A stretch of 64,000 nucleotides of DNA. It comes from Cyanophyceae cyanobacterium. Its GTDB lineage: Bacteria > Cyanobacteriota > Cyanobacteriia > Cyanobacteriales > JBHJGN01. Made by a program: the position numbers and the translations under genes. The notes below the pieces were generated by a model. That model saw only the letters and a program-made list of their open reading frames with translations. It had not been told where the DNA came from and ran no database searches. Shown in pieces: positions 5,287 to 18,821 of the stretch (its first letter is position 1; each line of letters opens with the position of its first letter). The stretch lies in NCBI GenBank assembly GCA_050331735.1, contig JBHJGN010000031.1, positions 96,001-160,000 on the forward strand, written 5' to 3'.

Positions 5287-7038
5287 CTAAAGCAATCCCT
5301 CGGATTTAAGCTGATTGAGAGAAAAGCTGAGTTTCTTCTCGGTCTGCTGTAGGGGTAAACACTGACGGGCTGCTTCCTGTCGCTGGAGCAAATCACCCTC
5401 CGTTGGCTGAGTCTGACAACCACGCTGGACGAGGCGCTGATGAACTTTTTCTTGCCAGAGTCTCTCTCCATCCTTCATCGCTGCAATATCGGCGGTTGGC
5501 ACTTTTACCCGCAGCTTCAGCGGGATGCCTGCCTCCTGCTTATTCTGATAGCCCGGATTAATCAGAAGACACTGACCTGTCGGAAACTTGAGTAAATCTT
5601 CCGGCGCACACAGCTTACGGATCTTTTCCTGTTCGGCCATACTAGTGTTGCTTTTTCCGGCACTTCTGCCTTTGGTTTTCTGATGCGTCTGCAACTCTTC
5701 ATCTCCTAAAAAATCAGAAAATAGCTTTGCTGACTCGTATTCTTGGGGATTAAAAATGGCTTTGCTACCGCAGCCGCCTAAAATCGCACGAGCGATTTCT
5801 CTACCGTAGGTTTTTTCTAGCTGGTTAAGATTCTGAAACCCTAGAATACTGACTAAGCCATCTTCTCGATTTTCATTGAGCCACTGAACGAGGGCAGGCA
5901 GATACAGAGTCGGTAACTCATCAAGCGCTAGCACCAGCGGGTCTTGGCGCGGCTGGCTCACGTTGCGGTTAACGAGCATGTGCAGAATACTGGCGCACAG
6001 CGGACCAACTACATCCCGCCGCTGTCGGTCCATGCCTACAATGAGTAGCTGCTTGCCTGCTAAATCTAGGGGCAGGGTGGTCTCCCCACAAAAGGCTCCC
6101 AGAATGCTTGGCTTAGCGAAGCGGGTAAAGGCGTTGTTCGCCGTAGCAATGATGCTGGCAACGGTTTTTTCAGAATCGGCAACCGACAGCAGTTGACCAA
6201 AGCTAGCCAGCACCCAAGGATTTAGTTCGCCAAGCTTTTCTGCGTTGCGCAAGCGCGCTGTCAGACTATCTAAAGACAGCAGCGCCTGACACATTAAGAT
6301 ATCGGGGTAGGGAGTGCTTTTTGCCAACAGAAACACGGCTTCAGTAAGCTGATCTCCGGCCATTGTAAAGAACGGATCGTCACTGCCTTGGGTCATCAGC
6401 TTGAAATTTTGATTGAGCACTTCGGCAATCTGACGGGCCATCTCGGCATCGGTCGGACTGCGGAGAAAATCGAGTGGGTTGCAGACGGCAGATTCCGGAA
6501 AGCCAGGAGCAAAGATGTGCAGTTTGTATCCGGCTTTAAGGGCGTAAGCGGCTAAACGCGAAGTTTGGGTCGGGTATTTGAAGTCATAGAGAATAATCGG
6601 AAAGCCGCGATCGACAGCAGAACGCAGCACGGGATCGATGATGCTAAAGGTTTTACCAGACCCAGGACCACCGCAGACGGCTAAACCTCGCTGCAAATCC
6701 GGTAAATAAAGGGTTTGCTTTGATGGCGATGTCTGCGGACGGCCAACATAGAGAGAGACAGCGTTGCGGCGATTTTCCCGAATTTGAGCGCAAGCCAAAC
6801 GGCGAGCCGCCGCTGTTTCCGGCTTGCCGCCAAAATGAGCGTTGGCCTGCTTTTGGCGACGACGGCGATCGCCAAGGACAGAGAGACTCCCCAAACCAAT
6901 CAGACAGGCTAGCAGAATCAGACTATTGCTATTCAATAGCTCTTGGAAATTATCGGGGACTGGCAGCTCAACAGCTTGAGCTAAATGCCCACTGTTGGGC
7001 ATCTCTATTCTCGAGTTCTCCTCGACATTTCTAACCAT
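5287..7038 (-). CDS. virD4: Type IV coupling protein (VirD4/TraD-like ATPase)
   Basis: N-terminal TM, Walker A GGPGSGKT, YDFKYP, CNPLDFL, Walker B LALDELPTL and GFQNLNQLEKTYG. Confidence 0.9.
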   Translation of the reverse strand: MVRNVEENSRIEMPNSGHLAQAVELPVPDNFQELLNSNSLILLACLIGLGSLSVLGDRRRRQKQANAHFGGKPETAAARRLACAQIRENRRNAVSLYVGRPQTSPSKQTLYLPDLQRGLAVCGGPGSGKTFSIIDPVLRSAVDRGFPIILYDFKYPTQTSRLAAYALKAGYKLHIFAPGFPESAVCNPLDFLRSPTDAEMARQIAEVLNQNFKLMTQGSDDPFFTMAGDQLTEAVFLLAKSTPYPDILMCQALLSLDSLTARLRNAEKLGELNPWVLASFGQLLSVADSEKTVASIIATANNAFTRFAKPSILGAFCGETTLPLDLAGKQLLIVGMDRQRRDVVGPLCASILHMLVNRNVSQPRQDPLVLALDELPTLYLPALVQWLNENREDGLVSILGFQNLNQLEKTYGREIARAILGGCGSKAIFNPQEYESAKLFSDFLGDEELQTHQKTKGRSAGKSNTSMAEQEKIRKLCAPEDLLKFPTGQCLLINPGYQNKQEAGIPLKLRVKVPTADIAAMKDGERLWQEKVHQRLVQRGCQTQPTEGDLLQRQEAARQCLPLQQTEKKLSFSLNQLKSEGLL

Positions 7039-7547: not shown

Positions 7548-8147
7548 ATGAAAAAAATCTCAAATGCACTCAGTAAATTCAAACAGCTTCGACTGACCAA
7601 ATACCAGCTTTGGCTCTGTGCGGCTCTTGTCGCCTGTGTCTATCTGTTAATTAACCACGCTACTGCCTTTACCTATTTAGGAGTTCCGCTCGCGTTAGGA
7701 ATTTTGATGTGGAAAGACCTGTGGCGGCAGACCGCTAAAGCCGTTGGTCCGGGGGGTAAATATATCCCAGAAATCGTTGCAGCCGTTGCGGCGATCGCTC
7801 TAATTTGGGGAGTGGGGATCGCTGAACCAGTGGGAGCGCAATTTTACCAGGATGCTCAAAACTTCTTTTGTGAGGAGCTAGTGGCTGGTACAGGTTCAGA
7901 CACCGAGAACGTGAAACGAGGCATTTCTGTCACCTTCAATGCGCTACGAGCCTTCTTCCTGATTTACATTGCCGTCTCCCTGATTCGAGTTGTCAATGCG
8001 GTGCGAGAAGATGAAGATTGGCAGACGATGGCGAGAACGCCAATTCTGGCCACTCTCATTGTCACAGTCGGAGATTTGCTCACCAACTTCTTTATCTCTG
8101 GCGACCCCAGCGACGGTGCCTGTGACACGGGCGGTAGTGGAGGATAA
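7548..8147 (+). CDS. T4SS pilin-like membrane protein (VirB2-like, cyanobacterial type)
   Basis: Multi-TM; the C-terminal part FNALRAFFLIYIAVSLIRVVNAVREDEDWQTMARTP is typical of the first gene of cyanobacterial conjugation operons; lies upstream of virB3/virB4. Confidence 0.7.
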   Translation: MKKISNALSKFKQLRLTKYQLWLCAALVACVYLLINHATAFTYLGVPLALGILMWKDLWRQTAKAVGPGGKYIPEIVAAVAAIALIWGVGIAEPVGAQFYQDAQNFFCEELVAGTGSDTENVKRGISVTFNALRAFFLIYIAVSLIRVVNAVREDEDWQTMARTPILATLIVTVGDLLTNFFISGDPSDGACDTGGSGG

Positions 8148-8162
8148 GCTTTAGTCACTGCT

Positions 8163-8531
8163 ATGCCTTCAGAGCGCTCTCAACCGATTAAAGTTAACCG
8201 CATTCTTGGAACTCAACCTCGTCTCGGACCTCTCCCTGCCGATCAAGTTCTGCCTTGGTCTCTATTCACTCTATTTTCCTACTTCATCTGTCAGGGATAC
8301 TACGACTTCGGCTGGCTGCCCATGGTGTTGCTAGATGGATGGCTCATTTCCACCTGGTGGATTCTCACTGGAGAGAGAAGCTGGCGTTTCCTGTCTAAGA
8401 TCTATCCTCCGGTTCCTCGGTGGGAGCGAGGTTGCCCCAAATACCACAGTTTTTTAGAAGATCACCGCTCATGGCACAAACCAAGAAGAAACTCGGCAAA
8501 AAGAGGGTCGGTTTCAAGAAGAACAAAGTAA
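8163..8531 (+). CDS. VirB3-like inner-membrane protein
   Basis: VNRILGTQPRLGPLPADQVLPW, two TMs and TWWILTG..WRFLSK; overlaps the virB4 start. Confidence 0.7.
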   Translation: MPSERSQPIKVNRILGTQPRLGPLPADQVLPWSLFTLFSYFICQGYYDFGWLPMVLLDGWLISTWWILTGERSWRFLSKIYPPVPRWERGCPKYHSFLEDHRSWHKPRRNSAKRGSVSRRTK

Positions 8532-11278
8532 CCCTCTCCCCGTTTGAAGATTTTCTGCATCTTGCTGCTCTCGTTCGGATTGCTTTAAGAGGTCGCCGAG
8601 TCGGAGCCTATCTACTGACCAAGGGACAAGGCAAAAGCCTGCGCTTTGTCTTTGGGTTTGAGTGTCAGGGCATTCACGCCACGCCTCGCTCCTCAGAAAC
8701 CGTGGAGACTGTCTTTAGTAACTTAGAGTCTGGCTTAAAAGAACTGCCCGGCGGCGAACTCCTCACGATCCACATGGGGTCATTCCGCGAGGAACGTCAG
8801 CGACAGGCTGAACTCGCTTCTCTGGTCCGCCACGCGCCCAACCTGGAGTCAAAATTTTTGCTAACCGGAGAACGCGCGCGAGTCCAGGAATTGACTCGAC
8901 TCGGCGTTCGCAAAGAGAAGTTCATTCGCATCTATGTAACCTACACTATTGAAACGGGTAACGTCGGCGCTCAAGATGCGGTAGAGAAGATCCTGGCACA
9001 GATGCAGGGAGTGTGGCATCGGTACACGGGTCAAAGAGAAGAAATGAAACAACGCCAGCTTCAGGAAAGTTTCACCCTAGCTTTTACTGACGGCTTTTGC
9101 CGCTGGGAGCAGATTCTCACCAATAAAATGGGGCTACCGCTGCGCCCCCTCGACGAGCAAGAACTGTGGGATGGTCTTTGGTCGCGATTCAACAGCAGCG
9201 AACCGACGCCGATTCCGCAACTGATTACGCTTGATAGTCGGGGCATAGCAGAAGAAATCAGAACAAAAACTCATGCAACCACGCTACTGCTCAGAGATCA
9301 TCTGCCGCAGGCAAGCGAATCTTGGCTAAAAGTTAAAGATCGCTACGTCGGCGCACTGACGTTTTTAGAAAAGCCAAGCGGTTGGGCCAATCGGTTAGCT
9401 CAGCTTCGCTATGTCTGGAACGTCATGGCCCGCGAACAGGTGCAGGATACCGAAGTATTTTGTCAATTGGCTCCAGCCAATCCTAAATTAGTGCAAATTG
9501 CCGTACAGCGGCTCCTCAAGCAATCTATCGTCACGGCTGACCTTGCCGAAGAGAAACAGTCGGCGGATGTGGCAGCGAAAGTTAAAGCCGAGCGCTCCTA
9601 CGAAGCGCAAAAGCAGATGTACGAAGGGGCGACTCCTCTCTACACGGGCATGACTATTTTAGTTCACCGCGATCGCCTCAGCGACCTCGATGAAGCCTGT
9701 CGCTTTCTCGAATCCTGCTTTCAACGTCCGGCTTGGGTGACGCGCGAGCTGAACTACACCTGGAAGATTTGGCTCCAAACTTTACCGATAGTGTGGGAGC
9801 GCCTGCTGGCCGTTCCCTATGACCGTCGCCAGCTCTACCTCAGCGATGAAGCCCCCGCTTTCATGCCGTTGGTGACAACGCAATCGCTCGATAAGCAGGG
9901 CTTTCAGCTCATTGCCGATGAGGGAGGAGCACCTATTTATATTGACTTATTCACGCAGCACCGCAACCTGGCTCTGTTTGCCACTACTCGTGCCGGCAAA
10001 TCGGTGCTTGTTGCCGATATCCTCAAGCAAGCATTAGCTCACCAGATGCCCATCGTGGCCATCGACTTCCCAAAGCCAGACGGCAGCAGTACTTTTACCG
10101 ACTTTACCCACTTTATGGCTCACAACGGAGCCTACTTCGATATTTCCCGCGAGTTCAACAATCTCTTTGAGAAACCCGACTTGCGGGTTTTAGAGCCTGA
10201 CGAACAGGAGTCCCGCTTTCTCGACTACCGCGACTTCCTAGAAGGAGCGCTGATGACAATGGTAGGCGGGAATAGTCGAGACCCGTTACTGGGTCAAACA
10301 ATTCGGTCTTTACTCAATTTGGCCCTCAACGCCTTCTTTGCCGATTCCCACATTGACCAGCGATATCAAGCCGCTCTAGAAGCGGGAATCGGCTCACCCG
10401 CGTGGCACAATATTCCCACTCTTCGAGACTTCCTTGAATTCTGTTCTCCGCAGCATCTCAATTTAGAATCAATTTCCGGCAACGTCAACGAAGCTCTTCA
10501 GCAAATTATCCTGCGCCTTCAGTTTTGGCTCGGCAGTCGCGTCGGTCGAGCGATTTCGCGTCCTTCGAGCTTTCCGACTAATGCTCAACTGATCGTCTTT
10601 GCGCTAACGAATCTATCCAACGAAGAAGATGCGGCGATTTTAGCGCTGTCGGCGTACTCAGCCGCGTTGCGTCGCGCCCTTGCTGCCCCTGCGTCTATCT
10701 TTTTCATTGATGAAGCCCCCATTCTCTTTGAATTTGAGGAAATTGCTAGCTTGGTGGGGAGGCTGTGCGCAAACGGTGCTAAAGCCGGAGTTCGAGTCAT
10801 TCTCAGCGCTCAAGACCCCGATACCATTGCTAAATCGCAACATTCATCGAAGATCTTCCAAAACCTCAGCACCAGATTAATTGGTCGCATTCAACCAGCA
10901 GCGGTGGAGAGCTTCGAGCGCATTCTTAAGTATCCGCGCGAGATCGTTGCCAAAAATGCTGGCGAAAGCTTCTTTCCGTCTCGCTCAGGAATCTACAGTC
11001 AGTGGCTGCTTGATATTGATGGTCTTTACACCTACTGTCGCTTCTATCCCGCTTACGTCCTGCTGGCAGCAGTGGCGAACAACCCAGATGAGCAGATTGT
11101 GCGTCGCTGGTTCTTGCAGCACTACGAGGATAAGTTTATTGCGCTGACAGAGTTTGCCAAACATTTAGTCAACTCGATTCGCAACGGTCAACCCCTGCGT
11201 ATTCCTCAGCAAGCACCGCAACCTCTTCTTGACGTTTCATCTGAACTGAAAAGCTTGAACGGAGCTGGTTCTAAATAG
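8471..11278 (+). CDS. virB4: VirB4-like T4SS ATPase
   Basis: ~935 aa; Walker A ATTRAGKS, Walker B FFIDEAPIL and LCANGAKAGVRVILSAQD. ATG 8471 is preferred over GTG 8420. Confidence 0.9.
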   Translation: MAQTKKKLGKKRVGFKKNKVTLSPFEDFLHLAALVRIALRGRRVGAYLLTKGQGKSLRFVFGFECQGIHATPRSSETVETVFSNLESGLKELPGGELLTIHMGSFREERQRQAELASLVRHAPNLESKFLLTGERARVQELTRLGVRKEKFIRIYVTYTIETGNVGAQDAVEKILAQMQGVWHRYTGQREEMKQRQLQESFTLAFTDGFCRWEQILTNKMGLPLRPLDEQELWDGLWSRFNSSEPTPIPQLITLDSRGIAEEIRTKTHATTLLLRDHLPQASESWLKVKDRYVGALTFLEKPSGWANRLAQLRYVWNVMAREQVQDTEVFCQLAPANPKLVQIAVQRLLKQSIVTADLAEEKQSADVAAKVKAERSYEAQKQMYEGATPLYTGMTILVHRDRLSDLDEACRFLESCFQRPAWVTRELNYTWKIWLQTLPIVWERLLAVPYDRRQLYLSDEAPAFMPLVTTQSLDKQGFQLIADEGGAPIYIDLFTQHRNLALFATTRAGKSVLVADILKQALAHQMPIVAIDFPKPDGSSTFTDFTHFMAHNGAYFDISREFNNLFEKPDLRVLEPDEQESRFLDYRDFLEGALMTMVGGNSRDPLLGQTIRSLLNLALNAFFADSHIDQRYQAALEAGIGSPAWHNIPTLRDFLEFCSPQHLNLESISGNVNEALQQIILRLQFWLGSRVGRAISRPSSFPTNAQLIVFALTNLSNEEDAAILALSAYSAALRRALAAPASIFFIDEAPILFEFEEIASLVGRLCANGAKAGVRVILSAQDPDTIAKSQHSSKIFQNLSTRLIGRIQPAAVESFERILKYPREIVAKNAGESFFPSRSGIYSQWLLDIDGLYTYCRFYPAYVLLAAVANNPDEQIVRRWFLQHYEDKFIALTEFAKHLVNSIRNGQPLRIPQQAPQPLLDVSSELKSLNGAGSK

Positions 11279-11324
11279 GTAGGGATCGCCCGCTCAACAA
11301 GCTGGATAACTCAGGAGTATAGCG

Positions 11325-11777
11325 ATGTTTCAACAATTTAAAAGCCTACGCCGAATAGCCGTCGCCTTCCTCTTGCTGGCTGCTGCGACGGTAATTTTAG
11401 AGCGCCATTGGGCGATCGCTAATTCACCCTCAACCCTTCCACCACACGAGGAAACTATGTTTCGGTTTGAAAATTTCGATCGCGCCGGCAACGACCGAGA
11501 AATTGAGCAGGCAATCAAGAAACGGCTGCTTGACATGCATCCCATTGGTTCTGATCCTGATGAGCTAATCGAAAGTCTAGAAGCTGCTGAAGCTTACTGT
11601 CGCGATGAGTCATCCCAGGACCAAGAATTTTCTACGCATCTGTGTCGGTATCGATACCCTCTTGGCATTCCCGTCAGCAACCCTCGGTTTACGGCAGAAG
11701 CGTTTCGGTCAGTCACAATTTACTACGACGAAACTGGCATTGTTGATATTGAAGTGAGCGTTGCTCATACTGCATAG
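11325..11777 (+). CDS. Exported hypothetical protein; candidate periplasmic immunity protein
   Basis: Sec-type signal/TM (RRIAVAFLLLAAATVIL..AIA), 150 aa, two Cys, RBS AGGAG; lies directly upstream of the candidate effector. Confidence 0.6.
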   Translation: MFQQFKSLRRIAVAFLLLAAATVILERHWAIANSPSTLPPHEETMFRFENFDRAGNDREIEQAIKKRLLDMHPIGSDPDELIESLEAAEAYCRDESSQDQEFSTHLCRYRYPLGIPVSNPRFTAEAFRSVTIYYDETGIVDIEVSVAHTA

Positions 11778-11822
11778 CTTTCATAGCTAAGAACATCCAG
11801 GATTGGAATAGGAGTGCGCTAA

Positions 11823-12698
11823 ATGGGACATAAAATCGAGGTCAGATCCTACGAAATTGACCAGCTAGACGAAACAGAGAACAATAATTGGTTTAATCGC
11901 GCTGTTGATGCAAGTCATGCTTTTATTGTGTATGCAGATGACCAAGGCAATGAGCAAATTCTGCGAGGCGGACCGAATCCAGAGACGGGCAACATTTTAG
12001 CGAATTACGGAGAATACAGTCAAAACGGTGTAGATGGAACGAACCCCGTTAGTTGGAGAGGCGAACCGCTGCGAGAAACACCAAGAGAAATTCGCTCTGT
12101 TGTGGTTGCTGAGGGAGGAGCAGAACTCGCCGCCGTTTTTGCCGCGATGAAGGAGCAGGCAGACGCAATTAATAAGGCACGAATTCCCTACATTGCTTGG
12201 GGACACAACGTCCAAAACAGTAACTCGGTTGTCGCTACGGTACTAGAAGAAGTTGGACTAGAGCCGAATTTTCCTCCGGGTTGGCACCCTGGGAGGAACG
12301 TCAATCTACTGGAGGAACATTTTCGGCAAGGAAATTCCAAACCAAGCAGCGCTCCTGCCTCTAGCCCATCACCAAAGGGTGAATCTAAGCCCACTGCTCA
12401 GCTACCTGCTAATGCTTACGAACAGGTTGCTGCTTACGTGCGTAATGCTTTAGCTAGTCCCAATTTAGCTGGATTAGCACTGGACAACCGCATTGCCCAA
12501 GCACTGATCAATGGCGAGACTGATCAAGCTGCTGCCAAAATTTTGAGCCAAAGTCCTAACGCACAGCAGGCAATGCAAGCAGGAAAACAGCCGGAAGCCT
12601 TTAGCTACATTCAAGCCAGACTAGAGCAGGGAACACAGTTAAATAATCAAACAGCTCAGGTGCAGTCGAACCGCGAACCAGAAATGAGGCTAGAGTAG
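11823..12698 (+). CDS. Candidate T4SS effector: N-terminal hydrolase-like domain, P/S linker and helical C-terminal domain
   Basis: RBS AGGAG and no signal peptide. HAFIVY..G.E.ILRGGP and PY...QNSNSVVATVL resemble permuted papain-like (PPPDE/LRAT/DUF3750-type) motifs. Linker KPSSAPASSPSPK; C-terminal LDNRIAQ..KILSQSP..Y..Q-rich..EMRLE. Confidence 0.6.
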   Translation: MGHKIEVRSYEIDQLDETENNNWFNRAVDASHAFIVYADDQGNEQILRGGPNPETGNILANYGEYSQNGVDGTNPVSWRGEPLRETPREIRSVVVAEGGAELAAVFAAMKEQADAINKARIPYIAWGHNVQNSNSVVATVLEEVGLEPNFPPGWHPGRNVNLLEEHFRQGNSKPSSAPASSPSPKGESKPTAQLPANAYEQVAAYVRNALASPNLAGLALDNRIAQALINGETDQAAAKILSQSPNAQQAMQAGKQPEAFSYIQARLEQGTQLNNQTAQVQSNREPEMRLE

Positions 12699-12935: not shown

Positions 12936-13829
12936 ATGTCCAACCAACCAAAAGCTATCAGCATTAGGAGAACTCGTCGGGTGGCGATCGCTGGTAGCCT
13001 ATCGTTAATCTTACTAGCCTGGAGCGCTAAACCTGCTAAAGCCGGAATCTTTGGTGGTTTGTTTGGCTACTTTACTAACTATATTGAAAATTTTGTCAAC
13101 GAAGTCGCATCTTACTACATCGATTATGTAGACGATTTTATTGATTACGTCGAACTGGGTGCGGATGTTTTAATGGGCAAATTAGAAGAGCGTTTACCGA
13201 GCATGATTGCAACGACAGTATTAGGCGATGACAAATGGATCGATCCAGAAACCTACAGCCCAGGAGCACTGGGATTGCCTAGCCCCATTGAGTTGACAAC
13301 ACAGATTAAAAAAGATATCTACGAAGGCAATGCAGCTTCTTTAGGTCTCGAAACCACTGCTGGCGGACGAGCCGAAGAAGAAGCAAGACGCAGCGAACGA
13401 GCGTTATCTAAAGAGATTAGTGATGCTGTATATCTAAGTCAGGAAGCTCAGGAACAGCATCAGATTAATATTGAAGAGACTCAAGCTTTGGTAGAGAGAA
13501 CTAACGAAGTTTCTAAAGCCTCAGCAGGGCTATCGGAGAAGGCGGATGCTGCCAACTCTAGTCAAGAGGTGTTGAAGCTGTTATCGCAACAAATTGCCCT
13601 TGATTCTCGGCAAAATGCCGAACTAACCTCGCTTGTCGGCAGCTTGAAAACGCAGCATTTGATGGCAACGATGGTTGAGCAAAGTCAAGTGGCGGCAGTA
13701 ATCCAGCAGTCTGAGTATTTAGCTGGACTTTACAGAAGCGAGGGTCTGAAAAAACAGATTAGCGGTGCTAATACAATTAGAGCCGGAAAAAATCTTCAGG
13801 GCTACGCGACGTTTGTCGGAGGACTGTAG
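12936..13829 (+). CDS. VirB5/TrbJ-like secreted T4SS component
   Basis: Signal peptide ending PAKA, GLPSP motif, long coiled-coil with A.SSQEVLK; lies between virB4 and virB6. Confidence 0.6.
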   Translation: MSNQPKAISIRRTRRVAIAGSLSLILLAWSAKPAKAGIFGGLFGYFTNYIENFVNEVASYYIDYVDDFIDYVELGADVLMGKLEERLPSMIATTVLGDDKWIDPETYSPGALGLPSPIELTTQIKKDIYEGNAASLGLETTAGGRAEEEARRSERALSKEISDAVYLSQEAQEQHQINIEETQALVERTNEVSKASAGLSEKADAANSSQEVLKLLSQQIALDSRQNAELTSLVGSLKTQHLMATMVEQSQVAAVIQQSEYLAGLYRSEGLKKQISGANTIRAGKNLQGYATFVGGL

Positions 13830-13949: not shown

Positions 13950-14065
13950 AATAACCTCAAAGTTAATGCAGATTTTCTGCCGTAGAAGCGTTAGTTTCTT
14001 GGCCAAGATGGGAACGATAAAAATGTAGCTGGTTCATAGTTGCTAGTGCCCTTGGACCATTGATA

Positions 14066-14785
14066 ATGATGAGATTTTTTTCTGTACGCCTAATCAGCAT
14101 AGCTGTTGTTCTGTTTCACCTTTCCCTACTAGGAGGAACGATGAGGCTGCCATCAGCACAGGCTCAATCTAACCCTCCTCTAAACTTTGACCCGACTGCC
14201 CCAACTCCTGCGCCAACTCCAACAACTTCCAATAACCAGGACTTCTTCTGCGGTCAGGGATGGGAATTTAATGGCTTTCCCTATGACTTGTTTGCCTGGG
14301 AGGAGATTCCTTGGGGTATGCCGGGAGATGAGTTTTTAAGAAGATACAAACAGCGAGTAGAGGAGTGTTCGTCAACAGTTTTTAGTGGTGAGCGAGGAAT
14401 AAATGCTACCCATTCATTTGAGAATAAGAGTCAGAAAGATCATACAACTGTATATTTTAGATTTCATGGAGAAAACAATACTCTTTCCGAAATTTATCTA
14501 AATCGTGTTCCCAGTTACATGAGAGATTATCTCTTGCAGCATTATGGAGTGCCTGCTCAAGCCAACTACACGCCAGTCAAAGTTCGTGTTGGTTGTGTTC
14601 GTGAAGGGATTGTCTGTCCTCCTGTCTTTGAATACCGAGGAGAGGAACTCTGGAGTGGAATCTGGCGGCTGTCAGAGACCTTCATTCAGTTAGGCACGCC
14701 CAATAGCATAACTATTAAACCCGTTGACTCTGACCTACAAAGTCGTCCTGTGTGCGATGAGTTTCTGATCTTCAAATTTTGTTAG
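14066..14785 (+). CDS. Secreted hypothetical protein within the T4SS cluster
   Basis: Signal peptide ending AQA, P/T-rich linker, IPWGM motif, six Cys. Confidence 0.7.
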   Translation: MMRFFSVRLISIAVVLFHLSLLGGTMRLPSAQAQSNPPLNFDPTAPTPAPTPTTSNNQDFFCGQGWEFNGFPYDLFAWEEIPWGMPGDEFLRRYKQRVEECSSTVFSGERGINATHSFENKSQKDHTTVYFRFHGENNTLSEIYLNRVPSYMRDYLLQHYGVPAQANYTPVKVRVGCVREGIVCPPVFEYRGEELWSGIWRLSETFIQLGTPNSITIKPVDSDLQSRPVCDEFLIFKFC

Positions 14786-14787
14786 CC

Positions 14788-16035
14788 ATGCTTCCAGGAG
14801 TAGTAAAGTTTACTCATTTATCATTCTGGCTGCTGGTGCAAGCTGGAGATACTTGTGATGGCGCTGGTAATTTTGACCTAGATCTCTCGGATCAGTTTGC
14901 TGAGGATGTCACGGTAGCAGAAAAAGTCAAGGAGAGTTTTGATGGACTGTGGGATGTGGCGCTATCTCCTACCAGTTTTGTTTATAGTTCTCTCTCTGAT
15001 ATTGGTCTACTGTTAGCAGTAGTTACCGTTACTGTGTTTATAGTACGTTGGGGGCGGGAGTTATTAGAGTCTGGAATTTCCAGTAAATCGTTTGGAGAAA
15101 TTATTTGGCCCTTAGTTGTAGCAGTTTTCTTAAGTAACAATGGACAAATTCTCGCTAGCACGACTCGCGCTATGCAGAACTACGTTCAAGAGCAGGAGGA
15201 AACAATTGTCAACGGAGCGTTTCTGGATGTGTTTATTGGAGAAACTCTTGAATCGGCTTTTCGGCAGTTAGTTGGTATCACGACAGTTCCTTTGGGCATT
15301 GGCTCGATTTTAGCTCAGTGTACTAGTCACGAAAATCCAGCGTTTTGCTTATCAGGACCACCAGTATATGAAGGAGAGGAAATTGAGAGATTTGAGTCTG
15401 GGGCGCTTCAACAGGCAATTTGTGCTTTGAATCCTTATGTAGAATCAGGAGAAAATCCTAAATTAGCTCAGCTCAGCAAAGAACTCGAAAAAGAACAAGA
15501 GAAGTTACATTCAATCCTTAAAAACGAAGTGCCAGGTTCTTCTGATGAAGAAGATACTTTCACTGTAGGCATTCCGCCTGAAATATACAAACTTATGTCT
15601 GCGAGTGAGGATTCTGGGTTGATGCAGTTCTTTATGGGGTCTGGAGCCGCATTTGTGTGGTTGACTGAACTCGCACTATTTATTACTGCCCTACTTGGAC
15701 CTCTCGCTCTTGGCTTGAGCCTGCTGCCTGTTGGCGGAAAAGCAGTCTTCGCTTGGCTGACAGGCTTCCTCTCTGTTGCTTTTGCAAAGCTGTTTTATTT
15801 CATTTTGACGGGGCTATCTTCGATTGTGGTGCTCGATGCTATTCAGGATGTGTCCCTAACAGACTTTGTGGACTCGATTCTGGTGGGAATCTTTGTCGGA
15901 GCACTGGCACCGCTGCTTTCCTTGGCAGTGTGCGTGAGCGGCGGTCGAGCGGTATTTCAAAGTTTAGTCGGCTACGTAGTTCCGGCGGTTGATTCGACGG
16001 TGCGGCGGCGGCAGATTTATCGAGCAGGAAAGTAA
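14788..16035 (+). CDS. VirB6/TrbL-like polytopic membrane protein
   Basis: N-terminal TMs with IIWPLVVAVFLSNNG, a Cys-containing loop, and C-terminal TMs ELALFITALLGPLALGLSLLP..K...AWLTGF. Confidence 0.8.
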   Translation: MLPGVVKFTHLSFWLLVQAGDTCDGAGNFDLDLSDQFAEDVTVAEKVKESFDGLWDVALSPTSFVYSSLSDIGLLLAVVTVTVFIVRWGRELLESGISSKSFGEIIWPLVVAVFLSNNGQILASTTRAMQNYVQEQEETIVNGAFLDVFIGETLESAFRQLVGITTVPLGIGSILAQCTSHENPAFCLSGPPVYEGEEIERFESGALQQAICALNPYVESGENPKLAQLSKELEKEQEKLHSILKNEVPGSSDEEDTFTVGIPPEIYKLMSASEDSGLMQFFMGSGAAFVWLTELALFITALLGPLALGLSLLPVGGKAVFAWLTGFLSVAFAKLFYFILTGLSSIVVLDAIQDVSLTDFVDSILVGIFVGALAPLLSLAVCVSGGRAVFQSLVGYVVPAVDSTVRRRQIYRAGK

Positions 16036-16068
16036 ACAGATAAGCATTTTTGTAAGGGATTGAGGGCT

Positions 16069-16818
16069 GTGGTGCAGATACTTCCAGAGAAAAAATCGAG
16101 AAACTACCTAGCGCTGTTTGTGCTGCTTACCGTGATTATGCAGGGGGCGAGTGTGCTGCTGCTGCTCTTTCAGGGGGCAATTATCAATCGCCTGAGCAAA
16201 AACCCGCCCACTCTGGTACAGCTTGTGGATGGAGAATCGATTCGCGTCGAGCCGATGGATTACCTAGAGCGTACGCCCCAAACAATCCGCGAGTTTGTTG
16301 AAGATACCATGACCATGCTAATGACCTGGTCGGGGGAACTTCCGGTCGAGTCGGCGCAGGATGAAAAGGTGCCGAGGCGCGACCCAGGAGTGACGATAGC
16401 GACGGAATCGGGTCGCTCTCAAAGGATTGCCACCTCTACCTGGCAAGCAGGATTTGCTCTTTCTGAAGACTTTCGGGTTGAGTTTTTGCAGGAACTGACT
16501 CGCCTCACTCCTCAGCGAATCTTTAGCAGAAATCAGGATACGCAGGTTGTTTTGGTGATACTCGATTTGTCTGAACCGAAGAAGATTGAAGAGGGTAAAT
16601 GGAAGCTGGCAATGGTCGCTAACTTACTGTTTTTTAGGGACGGTAGTTCCCTCGGAGAGGGAGTCCCGTTTAACAAAGAAGTTTATGTGCATACTGTCGT
16701 TGCGCCAGAAGTGCCTGATGATGCGACTCCTCTAGCTCGGAAAATTTATCAGGTGCGACAAGCTGGCTTGGAAATCTACGCCATGCGTGATTTAGAGGCG
16801 GAGGAAATTTTGGAGTAG
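16069..16818 (+). CDS. VirB8-like T4SS protein
   Basis: One TM, then PPTLVQLVDG, R.PQTIREFV..TM..LMTWSG, FALSEDFR.EFL and FNKEVYV; follows virB6. Confidence 0.75.
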   Translation: MVQILPEKKSRNYLALFVLLTVIMQGASVLLLLFQGAIINRLSKNPPTLVQLVDGESIRVEPMDYLERTPQTIREFVEDTMTMLMTWSGELPVESAQDEKVPRRDPGVTIATESGRSQRIATSTWQAGFALSEDFRVEFLQELTRLTPQRIFSRNQDTQVVLVILDLSEPKKIEEGKWKLAMVANLLFFRDGSSLGEGVPFNKEVYVHTVVAPEVPDDATPLARKIYQVRQAGLEIYAMRDLEAEEILE

Positions 16819-16911: not shown

Positions 16912-17478
16912 GTGACAACGCTGGTTAAGTGGACGGTTGAAGACTATCACCGGATGATTGAGGCAGGTATCCTCTCCGAACGACGCTGCGAGTTAATCGG
17001 AGGAAAAATCGTTGAGATGGCGCCGGAAGGACCGCTGCATCGGTTTATCAATGAAACGGTCGGTGACTATTTACGCCAGCAATTGGGAACTGCGGCTCTC
17101 GTTTCAGAAGCTCATCCCATTACTCTCGTAGATTCAGAACCAGAACCAGATATTGCCATTATTCAACCTCCTCGGAGTCGATACAGGAATCGCCATCCTG
17201 CCCCCCAGGATATTTACTGGCTAATCGAAGTTGCCGATACGACCCTTGCTGAAGATACAGGGGAAAAATTGACAGCGTATGCTAAAGCAGGTATCCCTGA
17301 GTATTGGGTCATCGACGTTCAGCGATCGCAAGTCAAAGTCTTTCGCCAGCCCCTCGAAGAGCAATACCGAAGCGAGACAACTGTGACGGCGGGAACAGTT
17401 TCGCCACTAGCCTTTGCTGATGTTGCCATTTCTGTAGAACGATTGTTGGGGGTAAGGAATAGCGAGACTCAGCTTTAG
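16912..17478 (+). CDS. Uma2-family (PD-(D/E)xK) endonuclease-like protein
   Basis: WTVEDYHRM, ELIGG.IVEM, SEPEPD, LIEVADTT and YAKAGIPEYWVID. Confidence 0.9.
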   Translation: MTTLVKWTVEDYHRMIEAGILSERRCELIGGKIVEMAPEGPLHRFINETVGDYLRQQLGTAALVSEAHPITLVDSEPEPDIAIIQPPRSRYRNRHPAPQDIYWLIEVADTTLAEDTGEKLTAYAKAGIPEYWVIDVQRSQVKVFRQPLEEQYRSETTVTAGTVSPLAFADVAISVERLLGVRNSETQL

Positions 17479-17573: not shown

Positions 17574-18500
17574 TCAGCGCGGAACGTTTAACGCTCCGTT
17601 GTTTCTCAGCCAAAGTTTCTGGTCTTCAGTGAATCCTTCTGCGTTTGTAAAAGTCGCGCCTGCTACAGTACACTCCGTTAAATCAACGTCGTCCCATACT
17701 GTATCTTCCACATTAGCATCTCGCAAATCAGCGTTTCTTAAACTAACCTGCGTTAATATTGACCCTTCTAAGCTGGCGGAAAACAAGGAAGCTTGAGTAA
17801 GATCTGAGGACTTAATTTGAGTATTTTGTAAACTAGCACGATTTAAATCTGCCTGTCGCAGAATAACAGTTTCGATTTCTGCTGCTCTGAGGTTAACACC
17901 AATTAGATCAGCTCCCGTAAAATCGGCTCTGGTGATACAGGCGCGGCTCAAATTAGCTTTTTCCAGATTTGCCTGCTGCCAAATTGTTCCCTGAAGATTA
18001 GCCGCTTCTAACGAAGCTTGACGAAGATTGGCCCCGCTAAAATTGCTATTAAGAAAAGTAGCCGCTCCCAAATTTGCTGCCTCTAAATTTGCCCGACAAA
18101 AGTTAGTGTTTTCTCCTTTGGCTTCTCTAAAATCCACTCTCTTTAAAACTGCTGCATAAGCCTCAGCATTATGAAGAGTGGCTCCATAAAATTTGGCATT
18201 TTCGGCCTTGGCCTCTCTAAGGTTGGCTCGTTCCAGGGAGGCACTGTTGAGCATAGCGTAGGCAAGATTGGCCCGAATTAGTTCTGTGCCTGTTAAAGTA
18301 GCAAACATCAGCGTTGCTTCCGAAAAGTTTGTGTCTCGGCAAGATGCTGCGGAAAGATTAGCGCCACGAAGATACGCTGCGGTAAAGTCTCCTCCATCTA
18401 GCTTGGTTTGCTGTAGATCGATGTGGCTTAGCTCCGCTTCATAAAAAGATTGTCCCAGTCTCAGTCTCATTAAGACTTCATCGGGAGAAAATAGCGACAT
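17574..18500 (-). CDS. Pentapeptide repeat protein
   Basis: Continuous A(N/D)LxX pentapeptide repeats; RBS GGAGG before ATG 18500. Confidence 0.92.
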   Translation of the reverse strand: MSLFSPDEVLMRLRLGQSFYEAELSHIDLQQTKLDGGDFTAAYLRGANLSAASCRDTNFSEATLMFATLTGTELIRANLAYAMLNSASLERANLREAKAENAKFYGATLHNAEAYAAVLKRVDFREAKGENTNFCRANLEAANLGAATFLNSNFSGANLRQASLEAANLQGTIWQQANLEKANLSRACITRADFTGADLIGVNLRAAEIETVILRQADLNRASLQNTQIKSSDLTQASLFSASLEGSILTQVSLRNADLRDANVEDTVWDDVDLTECTVAGATFTNAEGFTEDQKLWLRNNGALNVPR

Positions 18501-18821
18501 CTGTAGGTTGAGCCTCCGTATAGATGAATTAATCAATTGGTTCGAGCGGCACTGCTAAGTGTAATTACGCAAACTGACCGTAAATTGCTCCAAAATTAAT
18601 CATTTTCTCACTCAGCAGTCTACACCATTTATAAGTCAAGCAGAAGGCTATTGAGTCATGCTCACCAACTAAAGAGCTGCCCTCAATTTAGTCTTGATCG
18701 GGTATAGTTGATTGCACTCTGGACGTTTTTATTTCCTGGGCTATCTTATAAGAATGAATGATGCAAAGCTCATTAGCCGGCTCAAACTAGGAAAGAATTC
18801 TGACACTATTTAAAGCCCCTC

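Follow-up and report, generated by a model that had tools for sequence, protein, structure and literature searches.

Within an operon for a type IV secretion system (T4SS) of the cyanobacterial MPF_C class, the window, a stretch of 64,000 nucleotides, contains two adjacent accessory genes, ORF A and ORF B. We propose, with a probability of about one half, that ORF B is an antibacterial effector delivered by the T4SS and that ORF A is the corresponding periplasmic immunity protein. The first-pass annotation of this DNA had suggested such a pair, and its overall interpretation is partly supported, with the effector half agreeing with all of the computational tests run. A wider reading, which is tentative, is that the MPF_C T4SS of this lineage no longer serves conjugation and has been turned into a weapon against other bacteria that acts on contact. 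Two or more effectors would be delivered by means of a new C-terminal recognition domain that is not an XVIPCD, and one of them would be the first functional example of a family of permuted NlpC/P60 toxins with a serine nucleophile that also occurs on Rhs and RTX proteins of diverse bacteria.

ORF A (11325..11777, 150 residues) and ORF B (11823..12698, 291 residues) lie on the plus strand between virB4 and the gene in the VirB5 position. Each is preceded by its own AGGAG ribosome-binding site read from the sequence, at 11313..11317 for ORF A (7 nt before the ATG) and at 11810..11814 for ORF B (8 nt before the ATG), which confirms the gene arrangement described earlier. The spacers between virB4 and ORF A and between ORF A and ORF B are 45–46 nt long, and no terminator-like site was found between the three genes. 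Scans for promoters and terminators gave numbers of hits at the level of chance (13 versus 11.3 expected and 10 versus 10.9 expected, respectively).

The T4SS context is real. The VirD4-type coupling protein of 583 residues, the presumed substrate receptor, is encoded on the minus strand (5287..7038; Pfam TrwB_AAD_bind 2.1e-27, T4SS-DNA_transf 4.9e-24, TraG-D_C 6.3e-22), and the ATPase VirB4, a member of the cyanobacterial (MPF_C) class, on the plus strand (8420..11278; TIGR00929 1.3e-9). The true start of VirB4 is probably located 3' of 8420, because its relatives align from residue ~19–21. These relatives are 31–63% identical to the VirB4 of the window and were matched in 56 of 401 cyanobacterial genomes. 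The remaining T4SS genes of the window are also on the plus strand. A VirB10-like (TrbI) gene, a VirB9-position gene and a third gene are located on a separate contig of the same genome (G000:C8:51370-54843).

The gene content of the operon was compared with that of 20 other VirB4 loci, which were chosen by hand from 72 VirB4 matches and span 31–63% identity; a phmmer match at E ≤ 1e-3 was counted as a relative. The pilin-position gene 5' of VirB3/VirB4, which encodes an MPF_C membrane protein (7548..8147), has relatives in 18 of the 20 loci, with its order kept, and the small MPF_C gene at the VirB3 position (8163..8531) has relatives in 17, immediately 5' of VirB4. The polytopic membrane protein in the VirB6 position (14779..16035) and the bitopic protein in the VirB8 position (16060..16818), which is the final T4SS gene of the window, each recur in 18 loci. 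The order VirB4, exported gene, VirB6-like gene, VirB8-like gene is kept in 18 of 20 loci, where the gap that holds the exported gene measures 673–2424 bp, compared to 3.5 kb in the window. Neither ORF A nor ORF B has a relative in any of the 20 loci. Therefore, the two genes are accessory and are not conserved structural components of MPF_C, in line with their earlier description as non-structural. The name virB5-like given earlier to the gene 3' of ORF B (12936..13829), which encodes a signal-peptide protein, stands only as a statement of position, since a poorly conserved exported protein with a signal-peptide-like start fills this slot in MPF_C loci. A second locus-specific insertion, a 241-residue exported-looking ORF containing cysteine (g14060; 14060..14785, plus strand), has relatives in none of the 20 loci and no Pfam match.

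None of five Pfam relaxase families was detected in the genome, which is 99.98% complete, and the same models match four of five other MPF_C genomes. Because no relaxase is detectable, the T4SS has no obvious role in DNA transfer. The genome is a 99-contig assembly from an uncultured source, so that incorrect binning could account for the lack of a relaxase or have placed contigs C8 and C83 in this genome, although GC content, HIP1 density and tetranucleotides agree.

ORF B has no signal peptide: its N-terminus is not hydrophobic, and its most hydrophobic 15-mer (Kyte-Doolittle score 1.64) is internal. The motifs HAFIVY, LRGGP and QNSNS noted by the first-pass annotation are all present. The N-domain (residues 1–170; 11823..12332) was predicted by AF2 with pLDDT >90 over most of its length, and we confidently assign the model to the permuted papain-like/NlpC-P60 fold. 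No curated family matched the whole of ORF B (Pfam and NCBIfam, E ≤ 0.1) or the N-domain (Pfam, E ≤ 1). The best structural match is the type VI secretion (T6SS) effector TseH (6v98; Z 8.9, rmsd 3.3, 122 aligned residues, Foldseek E 4.4e-3), followed by PPPDE/DeSI-2 (Z 7.1), CLN5 (Z 7.0), 3kw0 (Z 6.6), Aichivirus 2A (Z 6.4), YiiX (Z 5.8) and PLAAT4 (Z 5.8); these seven best matches are all permuted papain-like proteins. A search of the PDB with the profile of the whole family returned only matches to RTX repeats, due to RTX-bearing rows of the alignment. In the model, His32 lies in the strand 30–38 and the helix 133–143 begins with Ser133, which is the permuted order. ORF B contains no cysteine, and Ser133 stands where permuted NlpC/P60 relatives carry the catalytic cysteine. 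His32 (codon 11916-11918), Asp71 (12033-12035) and Ser133 (12219-12221) are the candidate catalytic residues of a putative Ser-His-Asp hydrolase. Among 149 divergent relatives, H32 is conserved in 95%, D71 in 95%, Y123 in 100%, N132 in 99%, S133 in 95% and N134 in 98%, a pattern suggestive of selection on a catalytic center. The model, the structural matches and the conservation of Ser133 bear out the earlier proposal of a permuted papain-like fold with serine at the nucleophile position.

The N-domain resembles TseH from Vibrio cholerae and Tox-Act1 in its permuted order, with the histidine before the nucleophile, in its candidate role as an interbacterial toxin domain, and in the neighboring candidate immunity gene (PMC12994826). 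It differs from TseH by having serine instead of cysteine as the putative nucleophile, by an identity of only 14% in the structural alignment, and by its proposed delivery through a T4SS and not a T6SS. The TseH model of Pfam, if the library holds one, did not match the N-domain at E ≤ 1. DUF3750 (PF12570) and DUF2145 (PF09916), which are among the ESM Atlas look-alikes of the N-domain, also carry a conserved serine in place of the cysteine beside other active-site residues (PMC10318531). However, ORF B matches neither of the two Pfam models, although one of 22 N-domain relatives matched DUF3750 (E 0.0047), and neither family has been linked to a function or to a secretion context. Phospholipids are described as substrates of permuted NlpC/P60 enzymes, TseH among them (PMC12994826), and lipid is therefore at least as likely a target of ORF B as peptide or peptidoglycan. 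Of the envelope-acting papain-like hydrolase suggested earlier, the hydrolase fold stands, and the range of substrates has to be widened.

The N-domain belongs to a large family, since an exhaustive profile search identified 492 relatives (~490 clusters). Its place in 149 of these is N-terminal (92), C-terminal (25), internal (7) or stand-alone (25). Domains were scanned in 40 of 150 listed matches, selected manually according to length and score. The N-domain is located at or near the C-end of RHS-repeat proteins in four of the 40 (P0084, P0109, P0116 and P0153) and is part of RTX proteins in 15, with N-end placement in 13 of these; it also adjoins PT-HINT. The LRR protein P0042, with six short matches, was rejected as a relative since it looks like a repeat artefact. 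The mobility of the N-domain is thus of the toxin type, involving Rhs C-ends and RTX proteins. In classical polymorphic toxins, the trafficking module is N-terminal and the toxin domain C-terminal. ORF B has the reverse order, with the putative toxin domain N-terminal and the candidate trafficking module C-terminal, whereas the recombination of the N-domain onto Rhs C-termini, beside PT-HINT, and onto RTX proteins is like that of polymorphic toxin systems, in which Rhs- or RTX-borne toxin domains come with immunity genes (PMC3482391). Small ORFs for exported or membrane proteins adjoin the N-domain gene in four of six further loci, as judged by eye. A search of genome contigs for related loci with the alignment of the ORF B family found nothing.

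The replacement of the nucleophilic cysteine by serine leads to another reading, in which ORF B is a dead or non-toxic papain-fold protein, such as an adaptor or binding protein, and ORF A is an unrelated periplasmic protein or a lineage-specific accessory part of the T4SS. A papain fold with serine in place of cysteine could be poorly active or even a pseudoenzyme, and in its passages on the serine-based families DUF3750 and DUF2145 a survey from 2023 in JBC treats their activity as speculative and unproven (PMC10318531). The model of ORF A is also weakly, and non-significantly, similar to VirB8-type folds (CagV E 0.37, TraH E 0.26). The 95–100% conservation of His32, Asp71, Tyr123 and the Asn-Ser-Asn motif and the occurrence of the N-domain in toxin positions of Rhs and RTX proteins argue against this reading, which we consider very unlikely.

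A linker rich in proline and serine (residues ~166–197, 12318..12413; 13 P+S in 32 residues, pLDDT <50 over 174–194) connects the N-domain to the C-domain (residues 186–291; 12378..12698). The C-domain contains 15 glutamines in 106 residues, eight of them in the last 40, and is predicted to be helical, in agreement with the earlier description of a separate helical domain with a Q-rich tail. It is a candidate secretion or targeting domain. Its family comprises five proteins in all databases searched: ORF B, two ORF B-like proteins, P0031 and P0085. P0031 is an AHH nuclease (AHH 8.5e-13) that ends in the C-domain. P0085 is encoded in the same genome as ORF B (G000:C83:17036-19252) and combines SLT, M23, PG_binding_1 and the C-domain without a signal peptide; its end is 38–39% identical to the C-domain of ORF B. 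The P0085 gene is directly preceded by a 247-residue exported-looking ORF with a lipobox-like LLSSC start, and no full-length relative of P0085 was found in 40 related genomes. The C-domain is thus shared by a papain-like, a wall-hydrolase (SLT+M23+PG_binding_1) and a nuclease head, two of which occur in this genome, and the predicted architecture of a toxin domain followed by a shared C-terminal module is borne out.

The model of the C-domain is all-helical, with a low-confidence pLDDT of 40–70, and its structural matches are generic helical proteins (Z ≤ 5.3). When PDB sequences were searched with the C-domain profile, the best match had E 0.039, and a search of metagenome contigs for related loci with the C-domain alignment found nothing. 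The XVIPCD fold consists of two helices and a three-stranded sheet (PMC8740702). In the Pfam hits listed for the five C-domain sequences (E ≤ 10), no XVIPCD family appears. The Pfam library presumably includes an XVIPCD model. The C-domain appears not to be an XVIPCD by sequence or by predicted fold, where the comparison of folds is weak at pLDDT 40–70. Because there is no Pfam match and the prediction is all-helical, the C-domain should be considered analogous, and not homologous, to XVIPCD.

Among the 401 cyanobacterial genomes, strong matches to the C-domain were found only in that of the window, compared to 56 genomes with this type of VirB4; weak matches occur in G305, G104 and G006 (E 1.7e-3 to 7.1e-3). 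Since strong matches are limited to one genome, no co-occurrence statistic can tie the C-domain to the T4SS. This distribution is consistent with ORFs A and B forming a toxin-immunity cassette that merely landed in the T4SS operon and uses another export route, such as type I secretion via the C-domain, lysis or vesicles. Type I secretion signals are as a rule C-terminal and uncleaved, the N-domain occurs most often on type I secreted RTX proteins (15 of 40 scanned), and the only further carriers of the N-domain found in cyanobacteria have it joined to VWA/RTX-type proteins. However, ORF B, P0085 and P0031 lack RTX repeats, the shared strand, short spacers and lack of a terminator-like site after virB4 connect ORFs A and B to the operon, and the T4SS without a detectable relaxase has no evident task in DNA transfer. 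We consider another export route unlikely.

The domain composition of P0085 would also fit a different role, in which ORF B and P0085 are service enzymes of the T4SS that remodel the envelope in a VirB1-like manner, the C-domain docks them to the machine, ORF A is a periplasmic regulator, and nothing is injected. In other MPF_C loci, a gene 3' of the VirB9-like gene codes for a protein that carries an M23 peptidase at its C-terminus (L010:11494-13200, M23 1.7e-30). The copy of this gene on contig C8 (423 residues) has no M23 match, P0085 would supply SLT and M23, and ORF B is located inside the operon. Because an M23 hydrolase is part of the machine in other MPF_C loci, a service role has to be allowed for in the case of P0085 and, by extension, ORF B. 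Nevertheless, a third gene without M23 occurs elsewhere: the 399-residue version in L021 matched only the C8 gene, whereas the 569-residue L010 protein matched the C8 gene and other ORFs of the genome. The C-domain also ends the AHH nuclease P0031, which has no plausible role in assembly, and the N-domain occupies toxin positions of Rhs proteins. ORF B has neither the locus conservation (relatives in 0 of 20 MPF_C loci) nor the access to the periplasm of a VirB1-like wall hydrolase, since both it and P0085 lack a Sec signal and a membrane anchor. These observations make the service role quite unlikely.

ORF A starts with positively charged residues (K6, R9 and R10), followed by its most hydrophobic 15-mer (residues 11–25, mean Kyte-Doolittle 2.91) and the sequence AIA-NS. 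The signal-peptide-like region (residues 1–33) was called by eye, and agrees with the previous description of a small signal-peptide protein. The mature domain is acidic (pI 4.6), of predicted α+β structure, and contains two invariant cysteines (C92 and C107). ORF A has no Pfam or NCBIfam match, and only two relatives were found. One of them (52% identical) comes from the same source as a relative of ORF B (78% identical), and the two are probably neighbors on one 1786-nt contig. The model of ORF A, built from an alignment of three sequences (mean pLDDT 72.8), had no significant structural match (best Z 6.1, 2pww; Foldseek best E 0.075). It resembles NTF2/cystatin-like folds, including the VirB8-type proteins mentioned above, at non-significant scores. 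The T6SS immunity protein BtiO (Z 5.3), BamE, OsmE and BLIP-like folds were rejected as candidates below the level of noise. No sequence similarity was detected among ORF A, g14060, the ORF upstream of P0085 and the small ORFs that adjoin the N-domain gene in other loci. Prediction of a complex of ORF A (residues 34–150) with the N-domain of ORF B, run without controls, gave a score of 0.00 in both runs. We infer that ORF A is an immunity protein from three features only, which are the gene order, the predicted export and the conserved pairing with ORF B.

Based on these observations, a mechanism can be proposed in which ORFs A and B are the cargo genes of a relaxase-less chromosomal MPF_C T4SS. 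ORF B, which lacks a Sec signal, would be recognized through its C-terminal helical Q-rich domain of ~105 residues by VirD4 or another part of the T4SS. P0085 in the same genome and the AHH nuclease elsewhere may use the same C-module. In the target envelope, the N-domain, a predicted permuted NlpC/P60 (TseH/PPPDE/LRAT-like) acyl-hydrolase with Ser133 as the nucleophile, His32 and probably Asp71, would most likely cut an ester or amide bond, by analogy to TseH and Tox-Act1 primarily in phospholipids and secondarily in peptidoglycan peptides. ORF A would be exported to the periplasm and block ORF B that arrives in sister cells or leaks.

Bacteria-killing T4SSs have to date been reported from Xanthomonadales, Burkholderiales and Neisseriales (PMC8740702). 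In the Xanthomonadales type (X-T4SS), the effectors are termed X-Tfe and the immunity proteins X-Tfi (PMC8740702, PMC6536674, PMC6759196). ORF B resembles X-Tfe effectors in its N-terminal putative enzyme, linker and C-module of ~100–120 residues with a Q-rich tail, and in lacking a Sec signal. An exported-looking gene is located directly 5' of the candidate effector gene, for P0085 as well as ORF B. The C-module is common to unrelated enzymes, including a peptidoglycan-binding wall hydrolase like the X-Tfe XAC2609, and the T4SS is without a detectable relaxase. In contrast, the machine of the window is MPF_C, found in Cyanobacteria, whereas the X-T4SS is of the proteobacterial VirB/D4 type, and the C-module described here has no Pfam match, has two carriers in this genome, and is known from genes and models.

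Papers of 2012 and 2014 reported no experimental data on the cyanobacterial MPF_C T4SS, and a literature search yielded no publication that assigns MPF_C a part in protein secretion or killing. If the proposed mechanism is correct, ORF B and P0085 are the first proposed protein substrates of MPF_C, and the logic of T4SS effectors arose independently on a deep-branching cyanobacterial class with an unrelated recognition domain. The pair would then be the first indication that the cyanobacterial machine serves to attack neighboring bacteria. The C-domain could be a transferable secretion tag for use in cyanobacteria, and the system would give access to the study of interbacterial antagonism in dense communities of phototrophs. 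Apart from the T4SS, the N-domain defines an unannotated family of ~490 clusters in toxin positions, and its invariant Ser/His/Asp set makes the activity of serine-based papain-fold proteins directly testable.

The region of ORFs A and B is not a compositional island (GC 0.47–0.50). Among sequencing runs, a single DNA dataset containing the sequence was listed, which is labelled a stromatolite metagenome and may be the source of this DNA, and no RNA dataset was listed. A paper on T4SS and HIP1 in cyanobacteria (PMC13756078) offered nothing relevant to the locus. Both the composition and the HIP1 content of the region are native.

The locus of a type IV secretion system (T4SS) occupies about 5.3–16.8 kb of the window, which belongs to contig C31 (positions 96001–160000) of a cyanobacterial assembly (5.57 Mb, 99 contigs) and contains 0.83 HIP1 octamers per kb. 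The locus comprises genes for VirD4 (5287–7038, reverse strand; TrwB_AAD_bind, 2.1e-27), two small conserved membrane proteins (7548–8147 and 8163–8531), VirB4 (8420–11278; TIGR00929, 1.3e-9), ORF A (11325–11777), ORF B (11823–12698), an exported protein (12936–13829), an exported-looking 241-residue protein (14060–14785, forward strand), a polytopic protein (14779–16035), and a bitopic protein (16060–16818). The spacers between virB4 and A and between A and B measure 46 and 45 nt, and AGGAG boxes lie 7 nt (A) and 8 nt (B) 5' of the ATG. This gene arrangement, including the ribosome-binding sites and the position within the T4SS locus, agrees with the first-pass annotation as written. A terminator scan, which performed at chance level overall, placed no terminator-like site between virB4, A, and B. 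As listed, the VirB4 ORF begins with GTG and shares 112 nt with the gene before it (8420–8531). Relatives align from residue ~19–21 only, so translation probably begins at Met 18 instead.

Of the 401 cyanobacterial genomes sampled, 56 contain relatives of VirB4. The window's proteins were searched against the ORFs of twenty of these loci, hand-picked to cover 31–63% identity in VirB4. The two genes upstream of virB4 and those at the VirB6 and VirB8 positions recur in 17–18 of the 20 loci with their order kept, whereas relatives of A, B, and the 14060–14785 ORF occur in none, and the 12936 gene has a single, weak match (E 5e-4). Where VirB4 and the VirB6-like gene are both present (18 loci), the gap between them measures 673–2424 bp and contains one exported-looking protein of 235–394 residues (N-termini judged by eye); a few loci, L019 and L025 among them, have additional small ORFs there. 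In the window the gap extends over 3.5 kb. Because none of the 20 loci carries their relatives and the gap is larger, A, B, and the 14060–14785 ORF are, by gene content, cargo inserted into a conserved operon rather than components of MPF_C, the T4SS class of Cyanobacteria. The earlier proposal that A and B are non-structural thus withstood comparison with other MPF_C operons. That B, encoded inside the operon, is nevertheless a hydrolase serving the secretion machine is unlikely. The 14060–14785 ORF, a third locus-specific insertion located between the VirB5-position and VirB6-position genes, has a signal-peptide-like start, several cysteines, and no Pfam match; it may be a further accessory or immunity-type protein. 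In many other cyanobacteria (G092, G077, G065, G136, G068, G394, G242, G291, G307, G020, and G284), the chromosomal MPF_C virB4 contains one or two in-frame stop codons, which may reflect decay of several loci, or sequencing or recoding issues.

Neither A nor B matches Pfam or NCBIfam, and each family is single-copy in the genome. In word-indexed searches, B had two relatives (at 78% and 37% identity) out of 3260 candidates, and A likewise had two (83% and 52%) out of 110. The 78% relative of B and the 52% relative of A are probably neighbours, because each comes from one 1786-nt contig of the same source.

The N-terminal domain of B is more widespread. When 1.84 billion cluster representatives were searched exhaustively with a profile, 492 matched at E<=1e-3; 48 reached E<=1e-10 and 3 reached E<=1e-30. 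Among the 150 matches listed, all but two cover profile positions ~30–160, which correspond to the N-domain. An HMM of the N-domain matches 149 of 154 proteins taken from the searches. The domain lies N-terminally in 92 of these, C-terminally in 25, and internally in 7, and in the other 25 it makes up essentially the whole protein. Forty relatives, hand-picked among the matches listed for high score or large size, were scanned against Pfam. Four are RHS-repeat proteins with the N-domain at or near the C-end (P0084, in which PT-HINT follows it, P0109, P0116, and P0153), and fifteen are RTX-repeat proteins, 13 of them listed with the N-domain at the N-end. Hint or pretoxin-Hint modules occur in three, VWA domains in two, and no family in 13; a single LRR protein resembles a repeat artefact.

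The AlphaFold2 model of B, calculated from 89 sequences, has pLDDT >90 across most of residues 1–170. The best structural matches of the N-domain are all permuted papain-like proteins: the T6SS effector TseH (6v98; rmsd 3.3 over 122 aligned residues, Foldseek E 4.4e-3, probability 1.00), whose Z of 8.9 is barely over the search's stated noise band, DeSI-2/PPPDE (2wp7, Z 7.1), CLN5 (6r99, 7.0), cysteine peptidase 3kw0 (6.6), Aichivirus 2A (6.4), YiiX (5.8), and PLAAT4 (5.8). In the model, His32 is on a strand and Ser133 is the first residue of a helix, a predicted papain arrangement in permuted order. The fold assignment carries weight because the match list is coherent and because of this placement. 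Conservation among the 149 relatives is 95% for H32, 88–94% for RGGP 48–51, 95% for D71, 100% for Y123, 99% for N132, 95% for S133, and 98% for N134; B contains no cysteine. Model, structural matches, and conservation together support the initial suggestion that the N-domain is a permuted papain-like hydrolase whose nucleophile position holds Ser. ESM Atlas look-alikes, which serve as leads only, include unnamed clusters, DUF3750, TseH, DUF2145, Lnb_N, and Rhs- and eCIS-associated clusters, and one of 22 N-domain relatives matches DUF3750 (E 0.0047). A 2023 survey describes DUF3750 and DUF2145 as papain-like families in which a conserved Ser replaces Cys, with activity given there as unproven (PMC10318531). 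A non-enzymatic role of B, which such a replacement might suggest, is very unlikely, and B is likely to be a secreted toxin-type enzyme. Permuted NlpC/P60 toxins are reported to be active on phospholipids, namely Tox-Act1 and, in one assay, TseH (2026, PMC12994826); by analogy, the substrate of B may well be a lipid rather than a peptide.

The C-terminal domain of B has few carriers, five proteins among 7999 scored candidates, and a dedicated search for longer ones added none from this set. Among relatives' genomes searched with B, the window's own genome gave a second match: residues 187–281 of B are 38% identical to the end of P0085, a 738-residue protein (C83:17036–19252) that lacks a signal peptide and contains SLT, M23, and PG_binding_1 domains. 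The exhaustive profile search also found P0031 (402 residues), in which the C-domain follows an AHH nuclease domain (8.5e-13). A single C-terminal module thus caps three toxin-type enzymatic heads that are unrelated to one another; two of the three occur in this genome, which has exactly two carriers. It is also the only one of 401 cyanobacterial genomes with strong matches; three matches are weak (E 1.7e-3 to 7.1e-3). In 40 related genomes nothing matches P0085 over its full length; matches there are confined to the PG-binding or M23 parts. A 247-residue ORF with a lipobox-like LLSSC start precedes P0085, and the two form a second candidate immunity/effector pair (C83:16181–19252; L031:5181–8249). 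Just upstream (C83:12613–15949; L031:1613–4946) lie genes for a Zn_protease-like aspartyl protease, an inactive-transglutaminase/7TM protein (PF14400+PF14402), and a 'sugar-transfer associated' ATP-grasp protein (PF14397), which look like a peptide-modification module.

Both carriers, B and P0085, follow an exported-looking gene. An upstream gene of this kind and a C-terminal module common to unrelated heads also characterize X-Tfe, the effectors of Xanthomonadales-type bacteria-killing T4SSs. The X-Tfe logic proposed in the first-pass annotation holds to this extent, but the C-domain of B is not XVIPCD, the C-terminal domain of X-Tfe. XVIPCD is described as having a Q-rich tail and two helices that pack against a sheet of three strands (PMC8740702), whereas the C-domain of B has no Pfam match at E<=10 and an all-helical model with pLDDT of only 40–70. 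The Q-rich tail is shared, with eight Q in the last 40 residues of B. The C-domain is slightly favoured to be an export or recognition module with the T4SS as the route.

The mature part of ORF A is acidic (pI 4.6) and has two invariant cysteines. Its model from three sequences (mean pLDDT 72.8), two helices on a four-stranded sheet, gave no significant structural match. Small membrane or exported ORFs, identified by eye, adjoin the N-domain gene in four of six further public-genome loci. Two of the four are homologues of one another, and one comes from genome G034; none resembles A. A polytopic membrane ORF of ~100 residues directly adjoins the N-domain gene in a Synechococcus MAG (L036:3584–3895, reverse strand) and a Rickettsiales MAG (L037:220–528, forward strand), and in the latter a 141-residue lipoprotein-like ORF also follows. 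It is possible that these are membrane-embedded immunity proteins of the N-domain toxin family. That A is the immunity protein of B is slightly favoured, on the basis of its position and predicted export, the conserved pairing, and analogy.

Further T4SS genes, for a VirB10-like protein (TrbI, 7.9e-10), the VirB9 position, and a third protein, are located on another contig of the genome (C8:51370–54843; L030) among housekeeping genes; in other loci these three follow the VirB8-position gene. The two contigs agree in GC, HIP1 density, and tetranucleotide profile. The third protein has 423 residues and lacks the C-terminal M23 peptidase of its 569-residue counterpart in L010. Relaxase families PF03432, PF08751, PF03389, PF01076, and PF07514 have no match in the genome (99.98% complete), whereas PF03432 or PF08751 matches four of five control genomes with the same VirB4 type. 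A relaxase-less T4SS fits protein secretion, but an assembly gap or a divergent relaxase may account for the absence. Export of B by another route is unlikely. We give a probability of roughly 0.5 to the complete reading, in which B would be an effector secreted through the T4SS and A its immunity protein. It would extend the scheme of antibacterial T4SS effectors and their immunity proteins to another class of T4SS, with a recognition domain that is unrelated and a permuted NlpC/P60 head that is Ser-based. Among the matches listed, literature on bacteria-killing T4SSs and immunity proteins concerned Xanthomonadales-type or other proteobacterial systems, none joined XVIPCD with cyanobacteria, and that on MPF_C or cyanobacterial VirB4 contained nothing on cyanobacterial effectors; passages of papers from 2012 and 2014 state that nothing was known experimentally of MPF_C (PMC3548315, PMC4027160). 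The end of the T4SS cluster is abutted by a Uma2-family endonuclease-like gene (16912–17478, forward strand; PF05685, 3.4e-35) and by a gene (17574–18536, reverse strand) whose translation resembles pentapeptide repeats by eye.
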